DNA from: Dehalococcoidia bacterium
GTDB taxonomy: Bacteria; Chloroflexota; Dehalococcoidia; Dehalococcoidales; E44-bin46
DNA length: 64,000 nucleotides
NCBI GenBank assembly: GCA_030605575.1
Contig: JAUWIC010000063.1
Span: 254-64,253 of the forward strand
Direction of reading: 5' to 3'
Of the stretch, positions 1,135 to 59,157 are shown piece after piece. Under the pieces are notes generated by a model. It saw only the letters and a program-made list of their open reading frames with translations, had not been told where the DNA came from and searched no databases. A program made the position numbers and the translations under genes. The first letter of the stretch is position 1. Each line of letters starts with the position of its first letter.

Positions 1135-4100
1135 ATGACGAAGAAAGAGGCAAAGAAAGAAAAGGGGGCTAGCAAGATGCCCCCTTTTAATATTACCGAG
1201 CACAAGCCGATGGAGGAAGAAATGAGAAAACTAAGTTCTGCTATTGAGCAGTCGATCGACGGTGTAGCCATAGCTGACCTGGAACCAAAACTGACATATG
1301 TTAATGATGCTTTTGCCCGGATGCACGGTTATTCCCGTGAAGAAATGATGGGAATGAAAGTTGTCAACCTACATAATGAGGAACAGATGGACGAATACCA
1401 GAGGAGTATGAATCAGATAAAAACACAGGGTTCATGGGAAGGTAAAATAGGGCGTATTAGAAAAGACGGAACACCTTTTGCCACCTACATGTCGGTTAGT
1501 TTATTGAAAGGTGACGACGGAAAGCCCAAAGGAATTGCGACCGTTGCCACCGACATCACCGAGCACAAGCCGACGGAGGAGGCACCAGGACAAGACCAGA
1601 CCGAGTTAGAAAGACGAATGGAGGAACGAACTACAGAGCTGGTAACAACTAACGAAGTATTACAGGCTGAAATCACTAAGCGCAAGCAGGCAGAGGAGAG
1701 GCTAAAGATATTATTTGAATATGCACCAGATGCTTATTACTTGAACGACTTAAAAGGTAACTTCGTTGACGGCAATAAAGCTACCGAGGAAATAACTGGC
1801 TACAAGAGAGATGAATTAATTGGGAAGAGCTTTTTAAAACTACACCTGCTACCACGAAGCCAAATCCCAAGAGCGGCTGCGCTTTTAGTCAGAAATGCTC
1901 TGGGGAAAGCCACTGGACCAGATGAGTTTACTCTAAATCGGAAAGACGGCAGTCAGGTTCCAGTGGAAATAAGGACATTCCCAGTAAAAATTAAAGGTAA
2001 AACTTTGGTGTTAGGCATTGCCCGCGACATCACCGAGCGCAAGCAGGTAGAGAAGGAGATGAGGATTAAGGATAATGCTATTGCCTCGTCCATGAACGCT
2101 ATTGGCATAGCTGACCTTGAAGGTAATCTGACCTACGTAAACAATACCTTTCTCAAAATGTGGGGATATGCCGATGAGAAGGAGATTCTGGGGAAGAATG
2201 CTGTAGAATTCTGGCAGGTAGCAGAAAAGGCTGTGGAGATAATGCAAGTAGCGATGGAACGAGGGGGCTGGATAGGTGAACTAGCCGCCAAGAGAAAGGA
2301 CGGCTCAATCTTCGATGTCCAGCTGTCAGCAAGCGTGGTTAAAGATGAAGCTGGCAGGCCTATTTGCAGGTTGGGTTCTTTTGTTGACATCACCGAGCGC
2401 AAGCGGGCGGAGGAGGAGCTCAAACGCTCAAAAGAATTCTCGAAAACTGTCCTTGACAGCACTAATGATGCTATCTCCCTCATCGATGTTCATGATTTCA
2501 GGATAGTCGGAGTCAACAGTGCCTTGCTGAAGCATCTTGGGTTGAAAGAAGAAGAGGTCATAGGGAAGACCTGTTACCAGATAAGCCATCACCGGTCTAA
2601 ACCATGTACAGGACCGGATAACGTCTGCCCCCTCTCGGATACCGTAGCCAGCGGAAAGTACTCCGCAGCCGAGCATGTGCATTGCCGTGCGGATGGTGAA
2701 AAGATATATGTAGAGGTGTCTACATCTCCAGTAAAAGATGAAAATGGAAAGGTCATACAGGTTGTTCACGTATCAAGGGACATCACCGAGCGCAAGCGGG
2801 CGGAAGAGGCGCTAAAAGACTCTGAAGAAAGGTATAGAAGCCTGATAAACAACGTGAAATTAGGCATACTTAGGTCGACACCGGGACCCCCAGGCAGGAT
2901 ACTGGAAGTGAATCCCGCCATGGAAGAGATTACCGGCTACTCCAAGAGAGAGCTCCTGAAGATGGATATTTCTGAGTTGTATGTGTATCCAGAAGAAAGA
3001 GAAGCCCTCGTTCAGGAATTAGCCTCAACTAGAGGGAAGGTAGTAAGGGAACTACGCTGGAAGAAAGAGGATGGGACGGAAATGGTGGTGTTGAATAGAG
3101 TGATGGCGGTAAGAGACGATACGGGCAAGGTTCTATATTTGGATGCCATTATGGAGGACATCACCGAGCGCAAGCAGATGGAGGAGGCACTGGTCGATGA
3201 AGCAATCCGACGGCGTATCCTAATCGATCAGTCCAGAGATGGGATCGTTATCCTTGATAAGAATGGCAAGGTATATGAGGCGAACCAGCAATTTGCCGAG
3301 ATGCTCGGATACTCCCCCAAGGAAGCCGCTCAGCTCCATGTGTGGGATTGGGATACTCAGTGGCCACGCGAGCAACTGCTCGAGATGATCCGGAGTGTTG
3401 ACGCAGCCGGTGCCCAATTCCAGACGTACCATCGTCGCAAGGATGGTACGGTCTATGACGTTGAAATCAGCACCAATGGGGCCGTGTGCGCGGGTCAGAA
3501 GCTGGTCTTCTGCGTGTGCCGGGACATCACCGAGCGCAAGCAGATGGAGCAAAGGATAGAGCACCTCAACGCCGTGCTTCAAGCTATTCGCAACGTTAAC
3601 CAACTCATTGCCCGAGAAAAAGACCGCGATAAGCTGCTCAAAGGTGTCTGCGACAATCTCATCCAGACTCGTGGCTATTATATCGCCTGGCTGGCTATAT
3701 TGGATGAGTCCGGAGGGCTGGTAACCACCACTGAAGCTGGTTTGGGTAAAGACTTCCTGCCAATGGTCGAGTTACTGAAGCGTGGCGAGTTGACCGATTG
3801 CGCTCAGAGGGCACTGAGGCAATCGGAAGTGGTGGTAACCGAAGCCCCAGCCTCCACCTGCGTTGACTGTCCTCTAGCCGGCATGTTCCGTGGCAAGGGG
3901 GCAATGACTATCGGTTTGGAACATAAAGGAAAGGCCTACGGGGTGTTGTGTGTCTCCATTCCCCGAGCTCTTGTCACCGATGAGGAAGAGCAATCTTTGT
4001 TCAAAGAACTCGCCAATGATATTGCTCTCGCCCTGCACAACATAGAACTGGAAGAAAAGCACAAGCAATCGGAGGTGGCTTTGAAGCAGTCGGAGGAGAA

Positions 4101-5229
4101 GTATAGAACCTTGTTTGAGCAAAAGCTTGAGGGTGTAATCGTTATTGATGAAACAATGAAACTATTGCTGGCTAATCAAGCCGCCACAGAAATGTTTGGC
4201 TTGGATTCTGTGGGGGAAGTGCCTGAAGTGAACCCATTCGATTTCGTTCCCTCAGAGGAAAGAGAGCGAGTTCTCACCATTATAACCAAGGATATGTTTG
4301 GAAATGACCAGCGGCAGGTCAATGAGTTTCGGCTGATAAACAAGGCTGGTAAGGAAATGTGGATAAGCGCAGTTGGTGCACGGACTGAATATCAAGGCAA
4401 AGCAGCCGGTTTGGTTTCACTTAGAGACGTCACTGAGCGCAAGCGGGCGGAGCAAGAACTTGAGGAAAAGAATAAGCAATTGATGGCACAACAGCAGGAA
4501 CTTATGGAGAAAACCAATGAGGTGGAAGCGGCTAGCCAGGCTAAGTCGGACTTCCTGGCTCATATGTCCCACGAGCTACGCACCCCGCTCAATGTTATTA
4601 TCGGCTTCTCCGAATTGATGGCGGACGGGGTGCCCGGGGATATTAATAGTGAGCAGAAGCAGTGCCTGGACGACATCCTGAGCAGTAGCAAGCACCTGCT
4701 GGGCTTAATCAATGATGTCCTTGACCTGTCCAAGGTAGAATCGGGCAAGATAAAACTCAGGCTGGCTGAGGTTATTCTGCCCGACATCCTGGAAGAGTTA
4801 AAAAGAACTATGACGCCTATACTGGCACCAAGAAAGCAAAACCTTGATATCGAGGTAGAAAAGGGGCTTTCCCCGGTTTATGCCGATAAAGCCAAAGTAA
4901 AACAGGTACTTTTAAACCTGTTGGGCAATGCCACTAAGTTTACCCCGGATGGAGGCAAGCTAAAGATTGAGGCTATCAAGAAGGGTGGGTGGTGTCACGT
5001 CAGCGTGATTGATAATGGTGTTGGTATCAACAAGGAAGACCAGAAAAAGATATTTGAACCTTTCCGCCAGCTAGACAATCCCCTAACCGGGGAAAAGGGT
5101 GGGGCTGGGCTAGGACTAGCGGTGGTCAAGCAAATTATTGAGAAGCACGGTGGTAAGATTCGGGTCGAGAGTGAATATGGCAAGGGAAGCCGGTTTACCT
5201 TTACTCTACTACTAGCCCCAGTCGTTTAG
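1135..5229 (+). CDS. Multi-domain sensor histidine kinase (7 PAS, 1 GAF, HisKA, HATPase_c)
   Basis: PAS-length blocks are each closed by a DITE(R/H)K...EE linker. The kinase core shows an H-box HMSHELRTPLN, an N-box NLLGNATKFT, G1 DNGVGI and G2 GGAGLGLAVV. I saw no obvious TM segments. Confidence 0.9.
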   Translation: MTKKEAKKEKGASKMPPFNITEHKPMEEEMRKLSSAIEQSIDGVAIADLEPKLTYVNDAFARMHGYSREEMMGMKVVNLHNEEQMDEYQRSMNQIKTQGSWEGKIGRIRKDGTPFATYMSVSLLKGDDGKPKGIATVATDITEHKPTEEAPGQDQTELERRMEERTTELVTTNEVLQAEITKRKQAEERLKILFEYAPDAYYLNDLKGNFVDGNKATEEITGYKRDELIGKSFLKLHLLPRSQIPRAAALLVRNALGKATGPDEFTLNRKDGSQVPVEIRTFPVKIKGKTLVLGIARDITERKQVEKEMRIKDNAIASSMNAIGIADLEGNLTYVNNTFLKMWGYADEKEILGKNAVEFWQVAEKAVEIMQVAMERGGWIGELAAKRKDGSIFDVQLSASVVKDEAGRPICRLGSFVDITERKRAEEELKRSKEFSKTVLDSTNDAISLIDVHDFRIVGVNSALLKHLGLKEEEVIGKTCYQISHHRSKPCTGPDNVCPLSDTVASGKYSAAEHVHCRADGEKIYVEVSTSPVKDENGKVIQVVHVSRDITERKRAEEALKDSEERYRSLINNVKLGILRSTPGPPGRILEVNPAMEEITGYSKRELLKMDISELYVYPEEREALVQELASTRGKVVRELRWKKEDGTEMVVLNRVMAVRDDTGKVLYLDAIMEDITERKQMEEALVDEAIRRRILIDQSRDGIVILDKNGKVYEANQQFAEMLGYSPKEAAQLHVWDWDTQWPREQLLEMIRSVDAAGAQFQTYHRRKDGTVYDVEISTNGAVCAGQKLVFCVCRDITERKQMEQRIEHLNAVLQAIRNVNQLIAREKDRDKLLKGVCDNLIQTRGYYIAWLAILDESGGLVTTTEAGLGKDFLPMVELLKRGELTDCAQRALRQSEVVVTEAPASTCVDCPLAGMFRGKGAMTIGLEHKGKAYGVLCVSIPRALVTDEEEQSLFKELANDIALALHNIELEEKHKQSEVALKQSEEKYRTLFEQKLEGVIVIDETMKLLLANQAATEMFGLDSVGEVPEVNPFDFVPSEERERVLTIITKDMFGNDQRQVNEFRLINKAGKEMWISAVGARTEYQGKAAGLVSLRDVTERKRAEQELEEKNKQLMAQQQELMEKTNEVEAASQAKSDFLAHMSHELRTPLNVIIGFSELMADGVPGDINSEQKQCLDDILSSSKHLLGLINDVLDLSKVESGKIKLRLAEVILPDILEELKRTMTPILAPRKQNLDIEVEKGLSPVYADKAKVKQVLLNLLGNATKFTPDGGKLKIEAIKKGGWCHVSVIDNGVGINKEDQKKIFEPFRQLDNPLTGEKGGAGLGLAVVKQIIEKHGGKIRVESEYGKGSRFTFTLLLAPVV

Positions 5230-6942: not shown

Positions 6943-8850
6943 ATGGCGCTAAATAGGAAGATAGCCTATATTAATCTGACTAAAGGTAAAATTGAGGTAA
7001 AGTCCATTCCAATCAAGCTGCGGAAGCTGTTTCTGGGTAGTAGAGGGTTGGATATGTATTTAATGTATAACCATATAGAGCCCGGCACTGACCCTCTGGG
7101 AGCGGATAACGTGGCTCTGATTAGTGCCGGGATTCTGGTTGGTACCCTAGCTTCGGCTTCAGCTAGAACCCATATCGGGGGCAAGTCACCGCTTACTGGC
7201 TTTGTCGGCAGTACCAACATGGGTGGTTTCTTTGCTCCCGAAATGAGATGGGCTGGCTTTGACCACCTGGTAATAAAGGGAAAGGCAGAAAAACCAGTCT
7301 ATTTGTGGGTTCATAATGGTGAAATTGAAATAAGAGATGCCTTAAACATCTGGGGGAAGGATGTTCATGAGACCCAGGAGATTATTCGGGAAGAACTGGG
7401 CGATAGAGATATAAAGATACTGACCATAGGTCTGGCCGGTGAAAAGCTGGTGAGGTACGCCAATGTTATGACTGAGCTCAAGAATGCGGGGGGCAGGTCG
7501 GGGATGGGGGCCCTACTCGGCTCCAAGAACCTCAAGGCAATAGCAGTTAGAGGCACCATGGATATTAAAATAGAGCACCCTGATGAAGCCCTGGAATATA
7601 ATAAGAGGCTAATCAGCCAGGTAACCTCGGCTAAGGTGTCTCAAGAACAGGGAAAGTTAGGTACGACCTTCATCTGGGGGGCAACTAATAGTCAGGGTCT
7701 GGTCAGAGTTAGAAACTTCCAGCTTAATCAGCTTGAGGAAGCTGATGATATTGAGCCGGAAGCTCTTGAGGAATTTAGCCTGGGCATGGCTGGCTGCTTC
7801 GGCTGCCAGGTCCACTGCCGAGGTAAATATATTATACCTAGTGGCCCCTACACCGGGGTTTATGATGAGGGTCCCGAATATACCTCAATGGGTGCCTGGG
7901 CGGCTGAGCCAGGCTGTAGAAACCCCCTTACTATTTTGGTATGCAATCACCTGGTAAATAGCTACGGTCTGGATACCCTGGAGACAGGTAGCATGATTGC
8001 CTGGGCAATGGAGCTATATGAAAAGGGTATTCTGACCAATAAGGATACCGATGGCTTAGAGTTGAGGTTTGGTAATGATGAGGCGGTCATTGAGATGGTG
8101 CATCGTATTGCCCGAAGGCAGGGGCTAGGCGATATCCTGGCTGAGGGACCGCTACGAGCCGCGGAGAAGATAGGCAAGGACTCTGCCCAATATTTAATTC
8201 ATGTAAAAGGTATGAGTAACCTCCACTCTGATGAAAGGCCAACCCCATCTCTGGCACTGGGTATAGCCACCAGCTCCAGGGGTTCTGACCACTTGAGAAG
8301 CCGACCAGCGATTGACTTGTATCATCTACCTGAGCCTATTCTCAGAAAGATATATAGTCAACCGGTAGCTTATGACGGTCCATTAACCTCAAATTTTACC
8401 GACTACGAGGGAAAACCGTGGCAGGTTATATGGCAGGAATTATGCTTTGAGGCGGTAGATTGCCTTGGTATATGTAAGTATCACACGTTATTCCTTGGCC
8501 CCAACTTTCCCAACTTTGATGAGTGGTCTAAATTGCTTTACTACAACACCGGGTTAGAGCTATCGCCGCTGGATATCTGGAATATAGCTGATAGAGCTTA
8601 CACTATGGAGAGGCTGTTTAACATCAGGGAAGGACTGACCAGAAATGACGACTGGCTGGTTGACCGATACTTTGATGAGCCAACCAAACTTGGCATACCC
8701 ATTGTCAGGGGCAAGGTCATAGATAGAGACAAGTTCAGGCAGATGATAGATGAATACTATGAGCTTCACGGCTGGGATGAGAATGGTGTTCCTCGTCCGG
8801 AGACACTCCGCAAACTGGGTATAGACCAGGAGCCATCACATATGCTCTAG
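6943..8850 (+). CDS. Aldehyde:ferredoxin oxidoreductase (AOR) family tungsten/molybdopterin enzyme, catalytic subunit
   Basis: AOR hallmarks are present: GGFFAPEMRWAGFDHLVIKGKAEKPVYLWV, the 4Fe-4S motif CFGCQVHC plus DCLGICKY, EGPEY, and SSRGSDHLRS. Confidence 0.9.
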   Translation: MALNRKIAYINLTKGKIEVKSIPIKLRKLFLGSRGLDMYLMYNHIEPGTDPLGADNVALISAGILVGTLASASARTHIGGKSPLTGFVGSTNMGGFFAPEMRWAGFDHLVIKGKAEKPVYLWVHNGEIEIRDALNIWGKDVHETQEIIREELGDRDIKILTIGLAGEKLVRYANVMTELKNAGGRSGMGALLGSKNLKAIAVRGTMDIKIEHPDEALEYNKRLISQVTSAKVSQEQGKLGTTFIWGATNSQGLVRVRNFQLNQLEEADDIEPEALEEFSLGMAGCFGCQVHCRGKYIIPSGPYTGVYDEGPEYTSMGAWAAEPGCRNPLTILVCNHLVNSYGLDTLETGSMIAWAMELYEKGILTNKDTDGLELRFGNDEAVIEMVHRIARRQGLGDILAEGPLRAAEKIGKDSAQYLIHVKGMSNLHSDERPTPSLALGIATSSRGSDHLRSRPAIDLYHLPEPILRKIYSQPVAYDGPLTSNFTDYEGKPWQVIWQELCFEAVDCLGICKYHTLFLGPNFPNFDEWSKLLYYNTGLELSPLDIWNIADRAYTMERLFNIREGLTRNDDWLVDRYFDEPTKLGIPIVRGKVIDRDKFRQMIDEYYELHGWDENGVPRPETLRKLGIDQEPSHML

Positions 8851-27429: not shown

Positions 27430-28134
27430 ATGCTGGAAGTTAGCAATATTGATACTTTTTACGGCAAGGCTCAGGCCTTATGGGACGTTTCTTTGAGAGT
27501 CGATGAAGAAGAAATAGTCGCTTTGATTGGTGCCAACGGAGCCGGTAAAACGACACTGCTTAATACTATATCCGGTTTGCTACGTCCGGCTTCAGGCAGT
27601 GTGGAGTTCCTTGGTAAGAAAATAGATGGGCTAGCCCCTCACTCCATTGTGGAACTGGGTATTTCTCATGTACCCGAGGGTAGAAAACTTTTTACCGACA
27701 TGACGGTGCGTGAAAACTTAGAGATGGGTGCCTATCCTTACCACGCCTGGAAACAGAAGGAAGAAACGCTTGAGCATGTTTATCAAATTTTCCCAGCATT
27801 AAAAGAAAGAGAGAAGCAATTATCTAGAACACTAAGCGGTGGCGAACAGCAAATGTTAGCCATGGGTCGGGGTTTAATGTCAAGGCCCAAACTATGCATG
27901 TTTGATGAGCCGTCGTACGGTCTGGCACCGATATTAGTAGTAGAAGCTTTCCGGGCGATAAAGTCCCTGCGTGAACAGGGAATTACCATCTTGCTGATTG
28001 AGCAAAATGTTCGACGTACCCTGGAGATAGCTGACCGGGCGTACGTGCTAGAAAATGGCCGAGTGGTCTTGGAAGGAGCCTGTGACAAGCTTCTCCAAAG
28101 TGATTATGTGAGGAAAGCCTATTTAGGCATTTAG
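27430..28134 (+). CDS. ABC transporter ATP-binding protein (LivF type)
   Basis: Walker A GANGAGKTT, signature LSGGEQQML and Walker B LCMFDEPS are present. Confidence 0.9.
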   Translation: MLEVSNIDTFYGKAQALWDVSLRVDEEEIVALIGANGAGKTTLLNTISGLLRPASGSVEFLGKKIDGLAPHSIVELGISHVPEGRKLFTDMTVRENLEMGAYPYHAWKQKEETLEHVYQIFPALKEREKQLSRTLSGGEQQMLAMGRGLMSRPKLCMFDEPSYGLAPILVVEAFRAIKSLREQGITILLIEQNVRRTLEIADRAYVLENGRVVLEGACDKLLQSDYVRKAYLGI

Positions 28135-54365: not shown

Positions 54366-54395
54366 TTGACATCCTCACACGGATTTGATTAAAAT
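54366..54395 (+). promoter_or_regulatory. Sigma70-like promoter TTGACAT-N17-TAAAAT for tubulin-like paralog 1
   Basis: TTGACA lies at 54366-54371 and TAAAAT at 54390-54395. The architecture matches the one at 57924-57953. Confidence 0.4.
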
Positions 54396-54425: not shown

Positions 54426-55589
54426 ATGAAATTACTGGTTATAGGTTTTGGGCAATGTGGCGGCAGGGTTGCCGATGAGTTCATCCGGCTAGGTATAAGG
54501 GCACGCGTTGAGCGTGGGATTAATATAATTACCGGCGTCTTCGCTGTTAACACCGATGTTGCCGATTTAAGCGGGCTACTCACCATAAGGCCTGATTACC
54601 AGCATAGAATACTCATCGGGGGTCAAAAGACCGGTGGTCGTGGTGTCGGCAAAATTAACGAGCTGGGTGCCGAGATAGCCAGAGAAGATAGCGACAAGAT
54701 TATAGATGCCATCAAGACAACAGAACGACTCGCTGAGACAGACGCTTTCTTATTGATCGCTGGTGCTGCTGGTGGCACTGGCTCAGGGGCAATAGCCGCC
54801 GTAACCCAAAAATTAAAAGAGCGCTATATGGAAAAACCGATATATAACCTTATTATCCTTCCCTTTCAGCACGAGGAGGAAGTAGAGGGAAGGACTATCT
54901 ATAATTCGGCTACCTGCCTTAAATCTGCTTACTTAGTGGCCGATGCCGTAATTCTTATTGATAATCAAAGGTATATTAGTAAGAACCTCTCAATTAGAAG
55001 CAACCTGGCTAAAATCAATGCCTTAATAGCTGAGCCATTTTATAATCTACTTTGCGCCGGTGAAGAAAAAAAGCCCCAATACATTGGGTCAAGGATACTT
55101 GATGGTGGGGATATAATACAGACTCTAGCCGGGTGGACAGTGATAGGCTATAGCAAATCACAAAAAGCACGAATCAAAAACCCCTTTGATTTCAGGGACA
55201 AGATGACTGAAAGCCAAAGGGGAGCTCAAGTAATGGACAATGCCCTAAGCGAGTTATCACTCCAGTGCAACCCCAAGGATGCAGGCAGAGGACTATATCT
55301 CCTGTCGGCATCACCTAAGGAAATGGATATGAACCTGGTTAGAGACCTCGGAGCCCATCTGAAGCGTATAGCTCCCGAGGCTATAATAAGGACTGGCGAT
55401 TACCCCAGGGGGGATAGCGCAATCCATGTTACTGTAATCCTCTCTGAGCTTAGCGGTGTGAGTAAAATTGTAAACTACTTCACCCAAACGATTGAACTCG
55501 TCACCGCTCTTAAAAAGAAAAGGCAAGGAATAGAGGTCGAACATAGAGACCTTGGGGAAGCCTTTAAAGATATACCCTCGTTACTATAA
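54426..55589 (+). CDS. Tubulin/FtsZ-superfamily GTPase, CetZ-like (paralog 1)
   Basis: It shows MKLLVIGFGQCGGRVADEF (T1), GRGVGKINELGAEIA, DAFLLIAGAAGGTGSGA (T4 signature), ILIDNQRY, LDGGDIIQTLAG (T7-like) and RTGDYPRG. The C-terminal tail is DIPSLL. Confidence 0.85.
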   Translation: MKLLVIGFGQCGGRVADEFIRLGIRARVERGINIITGVFAVNTDVADLSGLLTIRPDYQHRILIGGQKTGGRGVGKINELGAEIAREDSDKIIDAIKTTERLAETDAFLLIAGAAGGTGSGAIAAVTQKLKERYMEKPIYNLIILPFQHEEEVEGRTIYNSATCLKSAYLVADAVILIDNQRYISKNLSIRSNLAKINALIAEPFYNLLCAGEEKKPQYIGSRILDGGDIIQTLAGWTVIGYSKSQKARIKNPFDFRDKMTESQRGAQVMDNALSELSLQCNPKDAGRGLYLLSASPKEMDMNLVRDLGAHLKRIAPEAIIRTGDYPRGDSAIHVTVILSELSGVSKIVNYFTQTIELVTALKKKRQGIEVEHRDLGEAFKDIPSLL

Positions 55590-55663
55590 TTAATCAAATA
55601 AGCTAGTCAGAAACAACGTTTCAGTCTCTTAGACTCGGTGTCTTATCCCGTCTCCTCAGCTAC

Positions 55664-57799
55664 CTATCCGTCTTCCGTCTTTCCCTTTATCTTGGCTTGT
55701 TTATTTTTGGGGGTTTCTTCTCCGGTCTCCTCGACTTGTTTGGCTTTATTAGCCGCATACATTCTGGCTAGAAACTCCAAACGGGATTTAACTTCCCCAC
55801 CTGTTTCCTTAGCCCGGCTTATCGCTTCCTCAGCAACCTCCTCAGCCAACTCACCTGTTTCCTCAGCGTGGCTTATTGCTTCCTCAACCGCCTCCTCAAC
55901 CACTTTACGTGTTCCTTCAGCCTGGCTTATCGCCAACTCAAATGCTCTTATTGATGACTCAGCTGCCGCCTTGGCTGCTTTTCTCGCCGCCTCAGCCGCC
56001 GCCTTGGCCTCCCTTTTAGCCGCTTCAGCCGCCTCCTTAGACTCTTTACCTACTGCCTCAGCGCTGGCTATCGCTTCCTGAGATACTCTGGTGGCTTCCT
56101 CAACCGCTTTCTGAGATTCCTTTATCGCCGTCTCAGTAACCTCCTTAGCCGACTTACCTGTCTCCTCCACCCGGCTTACCGCTTCCTGATATACTCTGCT
56201 GGCTTCCTCAACCGCCTCCCGAATCTCCTGGCTTATTTCCTCAGCCCTGGCTATCGCTGCCTGCGAAGCCTGCCTTATCGACTCAGCAGCCTTCTTTGAC
56301 TCCTCACGCACTCCCTCAGCACCAACTACAGCCTTCTCAAAGGTTCCAGCCGCCGTCTCAACGGTCTCTTGAGACCATTTAGTTGTTTCTTCCGCCCGGA
56401 TTATCGCCCTATCAAGGGTCTTGGTTAATGCCGCCGTGGACTCTTCAAGTGCCTCACTTATCTTCTCAGCCCTCTCCACCGCTTGCCGAGAGGCTTTAGC
56501 TGCCTCCCCGGCGGCCTTCTTAGCTGATTTGCTTATCTCTTGCACCCTGGATGCCGCTTCCTGAGATACCATTCTGGCTTCCTCAGCCATCTCCCTAGAT
56601 TCTTTAGCTACTGCCTCAGCCCTAGCCATCGCTTCCTGAGACACTCTGGTGGCTTCCTCAACCGCCTCCTCAACCACTTTACGTGTTCCTCCAGCCTGGC
56701 TTATCGCCGACTCAAACGCTCCTATCGCCGCCTCAGCTGCCGCCCTGGCCTCCCTTTTAACCGCTTCAGCCGCCTCCTTAGACTCTTTAGCTACTGCCTC
56801 AGCCCTGGCTATCGCTTCATGAGACACTCTGGTGGCTTCCTCAACCACCTTCTGAGATTCATTTATCGCCGCCTCAGTAACCTCCTTAGTCGACTTACCT
56901 GTCTCCTCCACCGTCCTTACCGCTTCCTGAGACATCTTAGTCGCCGCCTTAACTGCCTCCCGAATCTCCCGGCTTATTTCCTCAGCCCTGGCTGCCGCTG
57001 CCTGCGAAGCCTGCCTCACCGACTCAGCAGCCTTCTTTGACTCCTCACGCACTCCCTCAGCACCGACTATAGCCTCCTCAAAGGTCCCAACCGCCGTCTC
57101 AACGGTCTCTCTAGACCATTTAGCTGTTTCTTCCGCCTGGGTTATCACCCTATCAAAGGTCTTGGCTGATGCCGCAATGGACTCCTCAAGTACCTTGCTT
57201 ATCTTGTTAGCCCTTTCCACTGCTTTCCGAGAGGCTTTGGTTGCCTCCTCAGCGGCTTTCTTAGCTGATTTGCTCATCTCTTGCACCCTGGATGCCGCTT
57301 CCTGAGATACTCTTTTAGCTTCCTCAGCCATCTCCTCAGCCAATGTGCCTGTTTTCTCAGCCCGTCTTACCGCGGCCGCAGACTCCTTTATTGACGCCGC
57401 CGCAGCTTCCTTAACCGCCTTGACCGTCTTCTCAGTTTTAGCCGCCGATTCTTCAAAGGTTCGGGTTAAAACCTCAATCGCTTCCTTAGCCCGCCTGACT
57501 GCTTCCTCAGCTCTGGCTATCGCCTCCCCAGATGCCCTTGATGATGCTTCAGCAAGCTCCTTAGCCTCCTTGCTTACTTTCTCAGCCTTGCCCACCGCCT
57601 TCTGAGAGGCTTTTTGGGCTTGCTCTGCCACTTTCCTGGCTGACTTACCTATTCCCTCAGCCCTGGCTATTGCTTCTTGAGCTGCGCTTTTTGATGCCTC
57701 AGCTGCTCCCTTGGCTGACTTACTTAGTATCTCAGCCCTAGCTGCTGCTTCCTCAACCGCCTCAGTATCGTTTTCCATAGCTCTTAATAACCCTCCCAT
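55664..57799 (-). CDS. 711-aa Ala/Glu/Lys/Ser-rich all-helical repeat protein (about 28 x 25-residue repeats); function unknown
   Basis: This is a long uninterrupted ORF. An xRAE-type triplet recurs every 25 residues. I saw no signal peptide or TM segment, and the C-terminus is basic. The opposite-strand ORFs are shadows of it. Confidence 0.8.
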   Translation of the reverse strand: MGGLLRAMENDTEAVEEAAARAEILSKSAKGAAEASKSAAQEAIARAEGIGKSARKVAEQAQKASQKAVGKAEKVSKEAKELAEASSRASGEAIARAEEAVRRAKEAIEVLTRTFEESAAKTEKTVKAVKEAAAASIKESAAAVRRAEKTGTLAEEMAEEAKRVSQEAASRVQEMSKSAKKAAEEATKASRKAVERANKISKVLEESIAASAKTFDRVITQAEETAKWSRETVETAVGTFEEAIVGAEGVREESKKAAESVRQASQAAAARAEEISREIREAVKAATKMSQEAVRTVEETGKSTKEVTEAAINESQKVVEEATRVSHEAIARAEAVAKESKEAAEAVKREARAAAEAAIGAFESAISQAGGTRKVVEEAVEEATRVSQEAMARAEAVAKESREMAEEARMVSQEAASRVQEISKSAKKAAGEAAKASRQAVERAEKISEALEESTAALTKTLDRAIIRAEETTKWSQETVETAAGTFEKAVVGAEGVREESKKAAESIRQASQAAIARAEEISQEIREAVEEASRVYQEAVSRVEETGKSAKEVTETAIKESQKAVEEATRVSQEAIASAEAVGKESKEAAEAAKREAKAAAEAARKAAKAAAESSIRAFELAISQAEGTRKVVEEAVEEAISHAEETGELAEEVAEEAISRAKETGGEVKSRLEFLARMYAANKAKQVEETGEETPKNKQAKIKGKTEDG
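55880..57336. repeat. Intragenic tandem duplication (two ~0.7-kb copies) superimposed on a 75-bp periodicity
   Basis: TAGCTGATTTGCT(T/C)ATCTCTTGCACCCTGGATGCCGCTTCCTGAGATAC occurs at 56521 and 57262, an offset of 741 bp. One copy carries a 33-bp indel. The CTCAGCC-type motif recurs at about 56240, 56315, 56390, 56465, 56539, 56615 and 56689. Confidence 0.85.
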
Positions 57800-57858: not shown

Positions 57859-57887
57859 ATTTTATGATAGGCTATTTAGTTTTGCAA
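57859..57887 (-). promoter_or_regulatory. Sigma70-like promoter TTGCAA-N17-TAAAAT for the repeat-protein gene
   Basis: Read on the minus strand, TTGCAA lies at 57887-57882 and TAAAAT at 57864-57859. Confidence 0.35.
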
Positions 57888-57923: not shown

Positions 57924-57953
57924 TTGACATTATTCTATAAATATGCCTAAAAT
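57924..57953 (+). promoter_or_regulatory. Sigma70-like promoter TTGACAT-N17-TAAAAT for tubulin-like paralog 2
   Basis: TTGACA lies at 57924-57929 and TAAAAT at 57948-57953, within an AT-rich 182-bp divergent region. Confidence 0.4.
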
Positions 57954-57981: not shown

Positions 57982-59157
57982 ATGAAATTAGTAGTCATAG
58001 GTTTCGGACAATGCGGTGGCAGAATTGCCGATGAGTTTGCCCGACTAAATAGAAGGGCGCGTAGTTATCGTGGGATTGAGATAGTTACTGGTGCTTTCGC
58101 CGTAAACACCGATGCTGCCGATTTAAGCGGGCTAACCACCATAAGGTCTGATTACCAGCACCGAATCCTCATTGGGGGTCGGAAGACTAGCGGTCACGGC
58201 GTAGGTAAGATAAATGAACTGGGGGCTGAGATAGCCAACGAGGACGGCGACAAGATCATCGATGCTATAAGAAGCGCCCGGCGTTTCTTTGAGTCAGATG
58301 CCTTCTTACTAATCGCCTCTTCCGCCGGTGGCACCGGCTCGGGGGGAATACCAATAATAACGCAACTCATAAAAGAGCGCTACATGGATAAACCGGTATA
58401 CAATCTTATTGTCCTTCCCTTTGAGCACGAAGAGACTACCGAGGAAAGAACTATCTATAACTCAGCGGTATGCCTTAAATCAGTTAACGCAGTGGCTGAT
58501 GCCATAATTCTGGTTGACAATCAAAGGTATGTTAGAAAGGACTTCTCACTTAGAAACAACCTGGCCAAAATAAATGCCCTAATGGTGGAACCATTCTACA
58601 ACTTACTCTGCGCCGGTGAGGAGAAAAAGCCAAAGCACATCGGGGCCAGGATGCTTGATGCCGGAGACATAATACAGACTTTGGTAGGATGGACAGTAAT
58701 AGGTTATGGTAAATCACCGCTACCGCTAATCACCCTTCCCTTTGAGCGAAAGCGCAACTTCAGGCAAAAAAGCACCGAAACCCACAAGGGAATCCAAGCC
58801 ATGGATGAAGCCATAAGTGAGCTGTCACTCAGGTGTAACCCCAAGGATGCCGGCAGAGCCCTATACCTCCTTTCGGCACCAGCTAAAGAAATGAATATGG
58901 ACTTAATCAAGGAGCTGGGAGACTATCTAAGAGACATAGCCCCAGAGGCTACAATAAGAAATGGCGATTACCCCCGAGAAAGAGGGGTTCTGGATGTAGC
59001 TGTAATCCTGTCGGAACTCAACACTGTGGACAAGGTCAAGGACTACTATAATAAATCGGCTGGCTTTATCTCCGAGGTTAAACAGAGGCAGGAAGAAATA
59101 AAGGGCAAACTTAAAGAAATAGAAGATGCTTCACAAGATATACCCTCGTTATTATAA
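57982..59157 (+). CDS. Tubulin/FtsZ-superfamily GTPase, CetZ-like (paralog 2)
   Basis: It shows MKLVVIGFGQCGGRIADEF, GHGVGKINELGAEIA, DAFLLIASSAGGTGSGG, ILVDNQRY, LDAGDIIQTLVG and RNGDYPRE. The C-terminal tail is DIPSLL. Confidence 0.85.
   Translation: MKLVVIGFGQCGGRIADEFARLNRRARSYRGIEIVTGAFAVNTDAADLSGLTTIRSDYQHRILIGGRKTSGHGVGKINELGAEIANEDGDKIIDAIRSARRFFESDAFLLIASSAGGTGSGGIPIITQLIKERYMDKPVYNLIVLPFEHEETTEERTIYNSAVCLKSVNAVADAIILVDNQRYVRKDFSLRNNLAKINALMVEPFYNLLCAGEEKKPKHIGARMLDAGDIIQTLVGWTVIGYGKSPLPLITLPFERKRNFRQKSTETHKGIQAMDEAISELSLRCNPKDAGRALYLLSAPAKEMNMDLIKELGDYLRDIAPEATIRNGDYPRERGVLDVAVILSELNTVDKVKDYYNKSAGFISEVKQRQEEIKGKLKEIEDASQDIPSLL

Follow-up and report, generated by a model that had tools for sequence, protein, structure and literature searches.

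A predicted 25-residue-repeat coiled-coil protein encoded beside a CetZ-like gene is a candidate accessory of a tubulin-like cytoskeleton in Dehalococcoidia

The 64,000-nt stretch of Dehalococcoidia bacterium DNA analysed here (GenBank assembly GCA_030605575.1, contig JAUWIC010000063.1, positions 254 to 64,253), which we call the window, carries two genes for tubulin-superfamily proteins, CetZA and CetZB, and between them, on the opposite strand, a gene for a long alanine-, glutamate- and lysine-rich repeat protein, REP (Table 1). We describe the repeat architecture of REP, its distribution among related genomes, its strict association with one of the CetZ-like paralogues and an internal duplication of the gene. 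Taken together, the protein is most likely an accessory part, previously undescribed, of a bacterial tubulin-like cytoskeleton.

Table 1. Coordinates of the features discussed. Positions refer to the window unless a related locus (L followed by a number) is named; aa, residues of REP where ranges are given.
Feature	Position	Strand	Remarks
REP gene	55664..57799	-	ORF call, 711 aa; A/E/K-rich, all-helical repeat protein
N-terminal conserved unit	57650..57778	-	aa 8-50; N-termini of 33 orthologues aligned
Rod domain (predicted)	55835..57742	-	aa ~20-655; from unit register, Fourier peak, phase track and family unit statistics
C-terminal motif RLEFLARMY	55757..55783	-	aa 673-681; followed by charged tail
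Duplication copy 1	56652..57335	-	aa 155-382; one hendecad fewer than copy 2 and the single-copy orthologue
Duplication copy 2	55878..56594	-	aa 402-640
33-nt segment (11 codons, RKAAKAAAESS)	55952..55984	-	in copy 2 and L005; deleted from copy 1
Promoter-like site upstream of REP	57859..57887	-	consensus scan; weak, 9/12 matches, putative
Junction of ~640-nt deletion relative to L005	55652..55656		blastn; removed SMALL
CetZA	54426..55589	+	CetZ-like tubulin-superfamily GTPase, convergent with REP; Pfam Tubulin 6e-32, CetZ_C 8e-15
CetZB	57982..59157	+	CetZ-like paralogue, divergent from REP; in all 80 loci, with REP absent or present
Promoter-like TTGACA-18-TAAAAT upstream of CetZA	54366..54395	+	hexamers identical to those upstream of CetZB; putative
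Promoter-like TTGACA-18-TAAAAT upstream of CetZB	57924..57953	+	consensus match, putative
SMALL regions between CetZA and REP	L005 7779-8417; L091 4239-4814; L066 12417-12968
Third CetZ-like paralogue	L018 8764-9939; L020; L025; L076; L029 3037-4206; L043 1988-3157		with or without REP cassette
REP-like tail-anchored proteins	L029 14926-16467; L031 7909-9396; L042 1730-3694		31-33% identity to REP over >300 aa

Results

The REP gene and its 25-residue repeat

An ORF call recovered the open reading frame (ORF) of 711 residues reported in the original prediction, which had been made from the window's sequence alone; homologues and one independent gene call indicate that translation probably starts at Met8 (57778), which would give a protein of 704 residues. 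The 711 residues comprise A170, E135, K70, S60, V54, R51, T40, G28, P1 and C0, i.e. 24% Ala, 19% Glu, 10% Lys and 37% charged residues, and the N-terminus is acidic. Cysteine is therefore absent, as had been stated, while the claim that glycine and proline are almost missing holds for proline (a single residue) but not for glycine (28 residues, 3.9%). The maximum 19-residue Kyte-Doolittle mean is 0.68, in keeping with the predicted lack of a signal peptide and of transmembrane segments. The REP gene is genuine and evolves under purifying selection; its predicted product is all helical. Compared with the orthologue at the related locus L005, where the neighbouring proteins are ~88-93% identical to those of the window, its ratio of nonsynonymous to synonymous divergence (dN/dS) is 0.38, with values of 0.10-0.14 for the neighbouring genes and of 0.10-0.27 for seven other pairs of REP orthologues.

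The identity autocorrelation of REP has peaks at lags 25, 50, 75, 100 and 125 and is strongest at lag 247 (46% identity). Over the first 330 residues, the lag-25 value is 0.279 as compared with 0.123 ± 0.018 in shuffled sequences (z = 8.5), and a profile scan places 12 units exactly 25 residues apart between residues 26 and 325, followed by an irregular stretch of 22 residues, nine units, 33 extra residues and two final units. Both results substantiate the 25-residue period first counted by hand. On the plus strand, CTCAGCC or degenerate forms of it do occur at the positions, from 56240 to 56689, where such a motif had been listed, with a spacing of ~75 nt. The rod as a whole contains about 23-25 units with the consensus SKEAKEAAEASIKASQEAIARAEEI.

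Hydrophobicity along the protein gives a single sharp Fourier peak at a period of 3.58 residues, that is 25/7. Its power is 972, where the maximum in shuffled sequences is 49 ± 10 (~90 standard deviations higher than the mean), and the peak falls between 3.55 and 3.62 in all 35 REP orthologues. The hydrophobic stripe is coherent across ~640 residues, its phase being constant over residues 1-325 and 350-575 and stepping only at the 22-residue and 33-residue inserts. Within the unit, the apolar positions (4, 7, 8, 11, 14/15, 18, 19, 22 and 25) are spaced 3-4-3-4-4-3-4, or 7+7+11, and are mostly occupied by Ala, with I/V at 19 and 25. Among ~630 spacings between the 666 units of 36 proteins, 486 are of 25 residues, 48 of 36 and 42 of 22, the remainder being 47, 33, 69 and a few rarer values, and nearly all of the irregular ones conform to 25 ± multiples of 11. 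REP thus shows two hallmarks of non-heptad coiled coils: its coherent apolar stripe has a period that lies between those of heptads (3.5) and hendecads (3.67), and its insertions keep the helical phase. At the level of sequence the amphipathic helix runs on continuously, and the protein bears the signature of a continuous non-heptad (7+7+11) coiled coil with an alanine-rich core and insertions of 11-residue hendecads, so that the long coiled coil built on 25 = 7+7+11 proposed in the original prediction finds support in both the 3.58 period and the spacing statistics.

A heptad coiled coil was rejected because the only peak lies at 3.58 and not at 3.5, and a single alpha-helix (ER/K) domain because of the strong, coherent apolar seam. 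With reference to published coiled-coil periodicities, in which the undistorted helix has 3.63 residues per turn (PMC9858780), a period of 3.57 predicts a weak left-handed supercoil, with about half the twist of heptads. The most likely outcome would be one rod of ~95 nm, taking 0.148 nm for each of 640 residues. Within the unit, the surface positions (K2, K5, E6, E9, K13, E17, R21 and E23) are conserved as strongly as the core, and the rod could therefore make a periodic contact of some form.

REP accompanies one CetZ-like paralogue

To collect related loci, the tubulin-like protein encoded downstream was searched for in a single genome of each species and the best 80 of 177 were kept, which together with the window gives 81 loci. 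Most of the 80 belong to metagenome-assembled genomes of Dehalococcoidales or Dehalococcoidia, and their surrounding genes, bacterial housekeeping genes, keep a conserved order: LigA, Pth, a SLOG protein, enolase and GAPDH lie upstream, while DnaX, YbaB and RecR lie downstream. REP orthologues are present in 35 of the 80, and in the 81 loci REP occurs only where there is a second CetZ paralogue of the CetZA type. Where the interval is complete, the CetZA-type paralogue is directly adjacent and convergent in 25 out of 25 loci with REP, and the 20 without REP have either a single CetZ (16 loci) or only an additional CetZ that is 44% identical (4 loci).

The complete GAPDH-to-DnaX intervals show 17 cases of the order CetZ>, <SMALL, <REP, CetZ> (SMALL being a further helical protein, described below) and 5 cases of CetZ>, CetZ>, <SMALL, <REP, and 2 have a third CetZ as well; in the incomplete interval of L021, the CetZA/SMALL/REP trio is inverted. 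CetZA opens the first of these orders and CetZB closes it, and in the second CetZB precedes CetZA. The trio therefore keeps its internal order through three arrangements. That REP is never found without a CetZA-type gene in these loci, and that the order of the trio is kept through rearrangement, is the principal comparative indication that the genes are functionally linked, and the association with tubulin-like genes that the original prediction had drawn from position alone is strongly upheld by this conserved, rearrangement-resistant synteny.

SMALL is a helical protein of 126-191 residues encoded directly downstream of REP in most REP-bearing genomes. It is conserved and has a pure hendecad period of 3.64-3.69, a motif AYAAY..A...VAKAY and a C-terminal IEQAWxIYSK, and its dN/dS is 0.11-0.34; searches of Pfam, NCBIfam, PADLOC, PHROGs and PDB sequences gave no significant match. 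SMALL is absent from the window, where a deletion relative to L005 removed it (Table 1), and from four further assemblies of the same clade; weak tblastn matches at 27742-28086 lie within the gene of an ABC-transporter ATPase and were rejected. Both SMALL and a REP of 459-460 residues are present in L005 and L091. L092 lacks SMALL and yet has an unduplicated REP of 460 residues, which indicates that SMALL is dispensable at least sometimes.

The flanking genes are CetZ-like

Both neighbours of REP had been called tubulin-like, and both indeed match Tubulin (PF00091, 111.8 and 113.8 bits, cutoff 33) and CetZ_C (PF21011, 55.3 and 57.8 bits, cutoff 21.6). The best PDB sequence match of CetZA is Haloferax CetZ 4b46 (E = 8.6e-41), aligned over residues 1-363, the full length. 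Canonical FtsZ was rejected, since the NCBIfam ftsZ model TIGR00065 scores only 56 and 61 bits, far below its cutoff of 295. CetZA and CetZB are 65% identical and each retains the GGTGSG box and the acidic T7-loop residue, so that an alpha/beta-like pair with one inactive subunit is unsupported. When 118 CetZ copies were clustered by average linkage on identity, CetZA-type copies grouped apart from solo copies and from those of the CetZB type, which are DnaX-proximal, and the CetZA type evolves somewhat faster (mean pairwise identity 71%, as opposed to 76% for the CetZB type).

Nearly all of the 118 copies end in D[IL]P[ST]L[LI], the window's two copies in DIPSLL (55575-55589 and 59143-59157). 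The C-terminal docking peptide of bacterial FtsZ is DIPxFL. From the strong resemblance of the tails, the CetZ-like proteins may use FtsZ-type membrane anchors. Upstream of CetZA and CetZB, the regions that include the putative promoters have a mean column identity of 77%, which suggests that the CetZ promoter was duplicated along with the gene. The intergenic region of 182 nt between the divergent REP and CetZB is shared by both and holds the weak promoter-like site upstream of REP. Some genomes encode, between GAPDH and the main CetZ, a third, much more divergent paralogue with 39-45% identity and the tail ..ELPTLD (Table 1).

The ends of REP are conserved

Four parts can be recognised in the REP family: a conserved first unit, the body of units, a K/E/P-rich spacer, and a C-terminal motif with a charged tail. 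The N-terminal consensus, ..FEKAVARAExLSKxAxEAAE.., coincides with the first repeat unit. The C-terminal RLExLAxMY is present in 36 of 36 REP proteins, 35 by the strict pattern and one, from L015, as RLNFLAKMY; R, both L and M are invariant, and nowhere else in the protein do bulky hydrophobic residues cluster. In most orthologues an acidic tail follows this hydrophobic helix. The motif was found again in several metagenomic family members with intact C-termini that were examined.

An internal duplication and stepwise changes in length

The original prediction had described a tandem duplication with an offset of 741 bp. The offset was confirmed: the stretches at 56521 and 57262 match in 14 of 15 bases, and the alignment of the full duplication (gene nt 465-1148 against 1206-1922) covers 684 nt at 89.6% identity, with one 33-nt indel. 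A repeat search returned a 300-nt pair with 741 spacing and 89% identity; Tandem Repeats Finder, run with a longest period of 500, did not report the duplication. The REP of L005 aligns to both copies, and by blastn the L005 segment 8636-9352 is present twice in the window. Because L005 and copy 2 both keep the 11-codon segment, the difference between the copies is a hendecad deletion in copy 1. Synonymous divergence (dS) is 0.15 between the copies (dN/dS 0.66) and 0.47 between REP and L005, about three times as much, which indicates that the duplication arose after the split from L005.

Four further complete assemblies from four other samples (JGI 3300031643, 3300031278 and 3300027888, and ENA ERZ936064) carry the duplication. 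In protein sequence, REP in these assemblies shares 89-96% identity with that of the window, and those compared by blastn are colinear. All five, the window included, have an intact REP ORF of 707-715 residues, the lag-247 duplication and no SMALL, and judging from these sequences the duplication is now fixed in a clade. An assembly artefact, which the original prediction had itself raised as a possible refutation, is ruled out by these four assemblies together with the 10% divergence of the copies, which is enough for them to assemble unambiguously.

Orthologues of REP range from 396 to 852 residues and from 9 to 27 units, in line with the plastic repeat number that had been anticipated. In the window's clade REP is longer by 247 residues, the nearest unduplicated orthologues, in L005 and L091, having 459-460. 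Orthologue comparison shows that genomes differ in the length of REP by steps of whole 25-residue units and of 11-residue hendecads.

Short-read assemblies often break within REP: the contigs of L001, L004, L083, L085, L086, L087 and L090 end inside it, and L082 has 100 N within it (7988-8087). These frequent breaks explain why database entries are mostly fragments of 38-90 residues, why full-length members are scarce and why word-indexed searches fail.

Relatives of REP

REP matches no Pfam family at E ≤ 0.1 and gave no significant match in NCBIfam, PADLOC, PHROGs or PDB sequence searches; a confident assignment to some known unrelated family, which the original prediction had seen as a threat to its reading, was not obtained from Pfam, NCBIfam or PDB sequences. 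A word-indexed protein search with the full-length protein returned nothing at E ≤ 1e-3. When 1.84 billion cluster representatives were scanned exhaustively with HMMER, only 30 proteins reached E ≤ 1e-3 (best 4.5e-12), mostly contig-end fragments, with no informative domain fusion among them, and a 52-column profile of the C-terminus retrieved only contig-end fragments of 38-89 residues. REP would thus form a tiny orphan family, beyond which these searches detected no relatives.

Several known kinds of protein were considered. LEA_4, apolipoprotein and phasin families were rejected, as none matched in Pfam and the period is 3.58 and not 3.67; one REP homologue has sub-threshold matches to Phasin_2 (13 bits) and Alanine_zipper (20 bits). 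A protein like FilP, Scy or DivIVA was not supported, since no DivIVA-like N-terminal motif or domain was found (Pfam, E ≤ 0.1). A surface adhesin or S-layer protein was rejected on account of the low hydropathy maximum and the lack of any adhesin family in Pfam or NCBIfam, and a phage or anti-phage defence protein because PHROGs gave nothing and PADLOC only a 13-bit match to a ZorA coiled-coil tail. In L029, L031 and L042 there are REP-like proteins with A/E/K-rich repeats that end in a transmembrane anchor (Table 1). The one in L029 is encoded between recO and lysS, and a 117-residue protein encoded before it shares its N-terminal motif (KIMTKPLPQILDE).

Discussion

Our results favour the view that REP is a coiled-coil structural partner of the CetZA system, acting as spacer, crosslinker or tether, none of which we prefer over the others, and we give this a probability of roughly 0.55. 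The alanine-rich stripe would drive the assembly of two or more strands into a nearly straight rod, ~95 nm long here and with a repeat region of roughly 35-100 nm across the family, and the N-terminal unit and the C-terminal RLExLAxMY helix would serve as docking sites. Through its ends, the rod could bind filaments of CetZA or of CetZA and CetZB, or link them to another structure, and its reach would be set by the number of units. In most genomes SMALL would be co-transcribed with REP; the clade of the window has lost SMALL and lengthened REP. Such a cassette may contribute to cell shape or internal organisation while canonical FtsZ is kept for division. Dehalococcoidia are described as lacking a peptidoglycan wall.

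Several points weigh against a structural partnership with CetZA. The co-occurrence counts come from the best 80 of 177 loci and are uncorrected for phylogeny, and REP is transcribed convergently to CetZA, hence not from the same operon. L092 and the clade of the window have both lost SMALL, and this, together with the raised dN/dS of 0.38, or of 0.66 between the copies, could reflect relaxed constraint on the cassette in the window's lineage. A single-sequence AlphaFold2 model of the REP monomer (~93% helix) has low confidence, with a predicted local distance difference test score (pLDDT) of 56 and a predicted template modelling score (pTM) of 0.28, and breaks the chain at unit starts that contain Gly, so that a folded-back bundle of helices of 70-100 residues is, from the model, a possible alternative to one rod. 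Finally, the repeat does not match the polymer. Protofilaments of the tubulin/FtsZ family repeat every 4.0-4.4 nm and one 25-residue unit of REP spans ~3.7 nm, so a strict ruler with one unit per subunit fits poorly.

The competing explanation that survives best, though we consider it unlikely, is that REP is a self-assembling scaffold of the intermediate-filament-like kind, comparable to FilP, Scy or crescentin, and that its link with CetZA is functional but involves no side-binding or tethering of CetZ filaments. A long non-heptad rod with an alanine-rich core is what FilP and Scy look like (PMC9858780; PMC6599971), the ends of REP that lie outside the rod are short, and in most genomes a second coiled-coil protein, SMALL, is co-encoded. 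The same literature describes FilP and Scy as hendecad-containing dimers whose rod length has changed by internal expansion (PMC9858780). REP resembles them and crescentin in being, as predicted, a very long rod made almost wholly of coiled coil, in its non-heptad periodicity and alanine-rich core, and in the internal expansion of its rod. It differs in that its unit has 25 residues (7+7+11, period 3.57) and is not a run of hendecads, in that Pfam (E ≤ 0.1) reveals neither a DivIVA-like head domain nor any other known one, in its host, a member of Chloroflexota and not of Actinobacteria, and in its genetic tie to a tubulin-superfamily gene instead of a polarisome. Moreover, strict adjacency to a single CetZ paralogue, kept through rearrangements, is more than a process merely shared with CetZA would need.

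It is less probable still that REP is an amphipathic helix for membrane or lipid surfaces, or a hydrophilin of the late embryogenesis abundant (LEA) type, and that its adjacency to cetZ is an accident of conserved gene order. The composition, rich in A, E, K, S and T, and the indels in steps of 11 residues would suit such a protein, as would the sub-threshold Alanine_zipper and Phasin_2 matches of the homologue and the occurrence, in other Dehalococcoidia, of A/E/K-rich proteins that resemble REP but carry a transmembrane anchor at the C-terminus. However, LEA_4, apolipoprotein and phasin all fail to pass the Pfam threshold, 11-residue lipid-binding repeats have a period of 3.67 as against 3.58 here, and an apolar face made mostly of Ala would be too weakly hydrophobic for stable insertion into a membrane. 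The acidic tail that follows the C-terminal helix in most orthologues is also unlike what terminal membrane-targeting helices have, and an accident of gene order does not account for the fact that REP is missing wherever CetZA is missing and moves when CetZA moves. That the duplication comes from mis-assembly or strain chimerism, or that the ORF is decaying or non-functional in this lineage, is barely credible: many short-read contigs do stop within REP, where one scaffold contains a run of N, SMALL is deleted and the copies have a raised dN/dS, but copies that are just 89.6% identical are easily resolved by assemblers, four assemblies from other samples carry the duplication in an intact ORF, a dS between copies well below that to L005 is expected of a real event after the split, and the ORF is uninterrupted and preserves its amphipathic phase.

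As a structural partner of CetZA, REP would belong to a kind of protein that is already known, either the coiled-coil accessories of tubulin-superfamily polymers or the coiled-coil rods of bacterial cytoskeletons. In the cytoplasm, the coiled-coil proteins ZapB, EzrA and ZapA bundle or tether FtsZ, a polymer of the tubulin superfamily. The tails of the CetZ-like proteins recall that system, but REP is much longer than those proteins, is regularly repetitive and accompanies a CetZ-type paralogue in place of FtsZ, and no homology to FtsZ-associated coiled-coil proteins was detected in Pfam, NCBIfam or PDB sequence searches. BtubC, encoded with BtubA/B, is a tetratricopeptide repeat protein. Like BtubC with BtubA/B, and like TubY with TubZ (PMC7762940), REP is a helical or coiled-coil product encoded beside tubulin-like paralogues; unlike TubY, a short tetramer with a helix-turn-helix domain, it is a predicted rod of ~700 residues made of 25-residue repeats, and it has no sequence relationship with either protein. 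Coiled-coil genes have also been noted next to archaeal CetZ and tubulin-like genes (PMC9871819).

The flanking genes are like the archaeal CetZ family in their Tubulin GTPase and CetZ_C domains and in the full-length match to 4b46, and unlike it in their host, a bacterium with NAD-dependent LigA, Pth and DnaX-YbaB-RecR. Most recent CetZ literature treats the family as archaea-specific factors of shape and motility. A phylogenomic survey did record CetZ-like proteins in Chloroflexota-Dehalococcoidia and placed the Dehalococcoidia sequences in paraphyletic 'CetZ-like' groups outside canonical CetZ (PMC9871819), and D. mccartyi expresses a tubulin/FtsZ GTPase besides canonical FtsZ (PMC8163811). 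In the literature searched, no structural partner encoded beside a cetZ gene was found named and no partner of a bacterial CetZ-like protein was found described; neither there nor in the sequence libraries searched did we find a description of the REP family, of its 25/7 architecture or of its pairing with a bacterial CetZ-like paralogue. REP is a concrete candidate, open to experiment, for a protein associated with the filaments of a CetZ-type polymer. In a bacterial order, one to three CetZ-like genes are retained at the same place in the chromosome, and one of these paralogues forms a cassette with the orphan coiled-coil rod and, in most cases, with another, small coiled-coil protein. The locus offers a handle on how Dehalococcoidia, including the organohalide respirers used in bioremediation, organise or shape their cells.

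A bolder version, which we regard as improbable, is that CetZA, CetZB, REP and, where present, SMALL make up a complete and unrecognised tubulin-based cytoskeleton in which REP is a periodic element that sets lengths along or between filaments. If this were true, the number of units (9-27) might tune a cellular dimension, for example the thickness or diameter of disc-shaped cells, and the system would be a bacterial counterpart of the CetZ-driven shape control of haloarchaea, with a dedicated partner like a microtubule-associated protein. Tropomyosin, nebulin and GvpC are built of periodic repeats and run along a polymer or a lattice. By resemblance only, REP could be compared with them, being charged and helical and consisting of many quasi-equivalent units whose number sets its length, but the mismatch of its unit with the subunit repeat of the polymer sets it apart.

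REP is a predicted rod whose length evolves by the gain or loss of whole structural units. It also offers protein designers a clean case, found in nature, of a coiled coil with 25/7 periodicity. Three of the weaker HMMER matches (P0014, P0019 and P0040) have REP-like repeats joined to unrelated sequence and may be chimeric contigs, compositional matches or real fusions; the N-terminal region of P0040 looks by eye like a sensor of the PAS/histidine-kinase type, and a hydrophobic stretch follows its repeats. ORFs antisense to REP on the plus strand (86-166 residues; 55638-56081, 56540-57040 and 57345-57605) were dismissed as by-products of the repetitive, GC-rich codon pattern. Away from this locus, at the start of the window, there is an ORF of 1364 residues on the plus strand (1135-5229).

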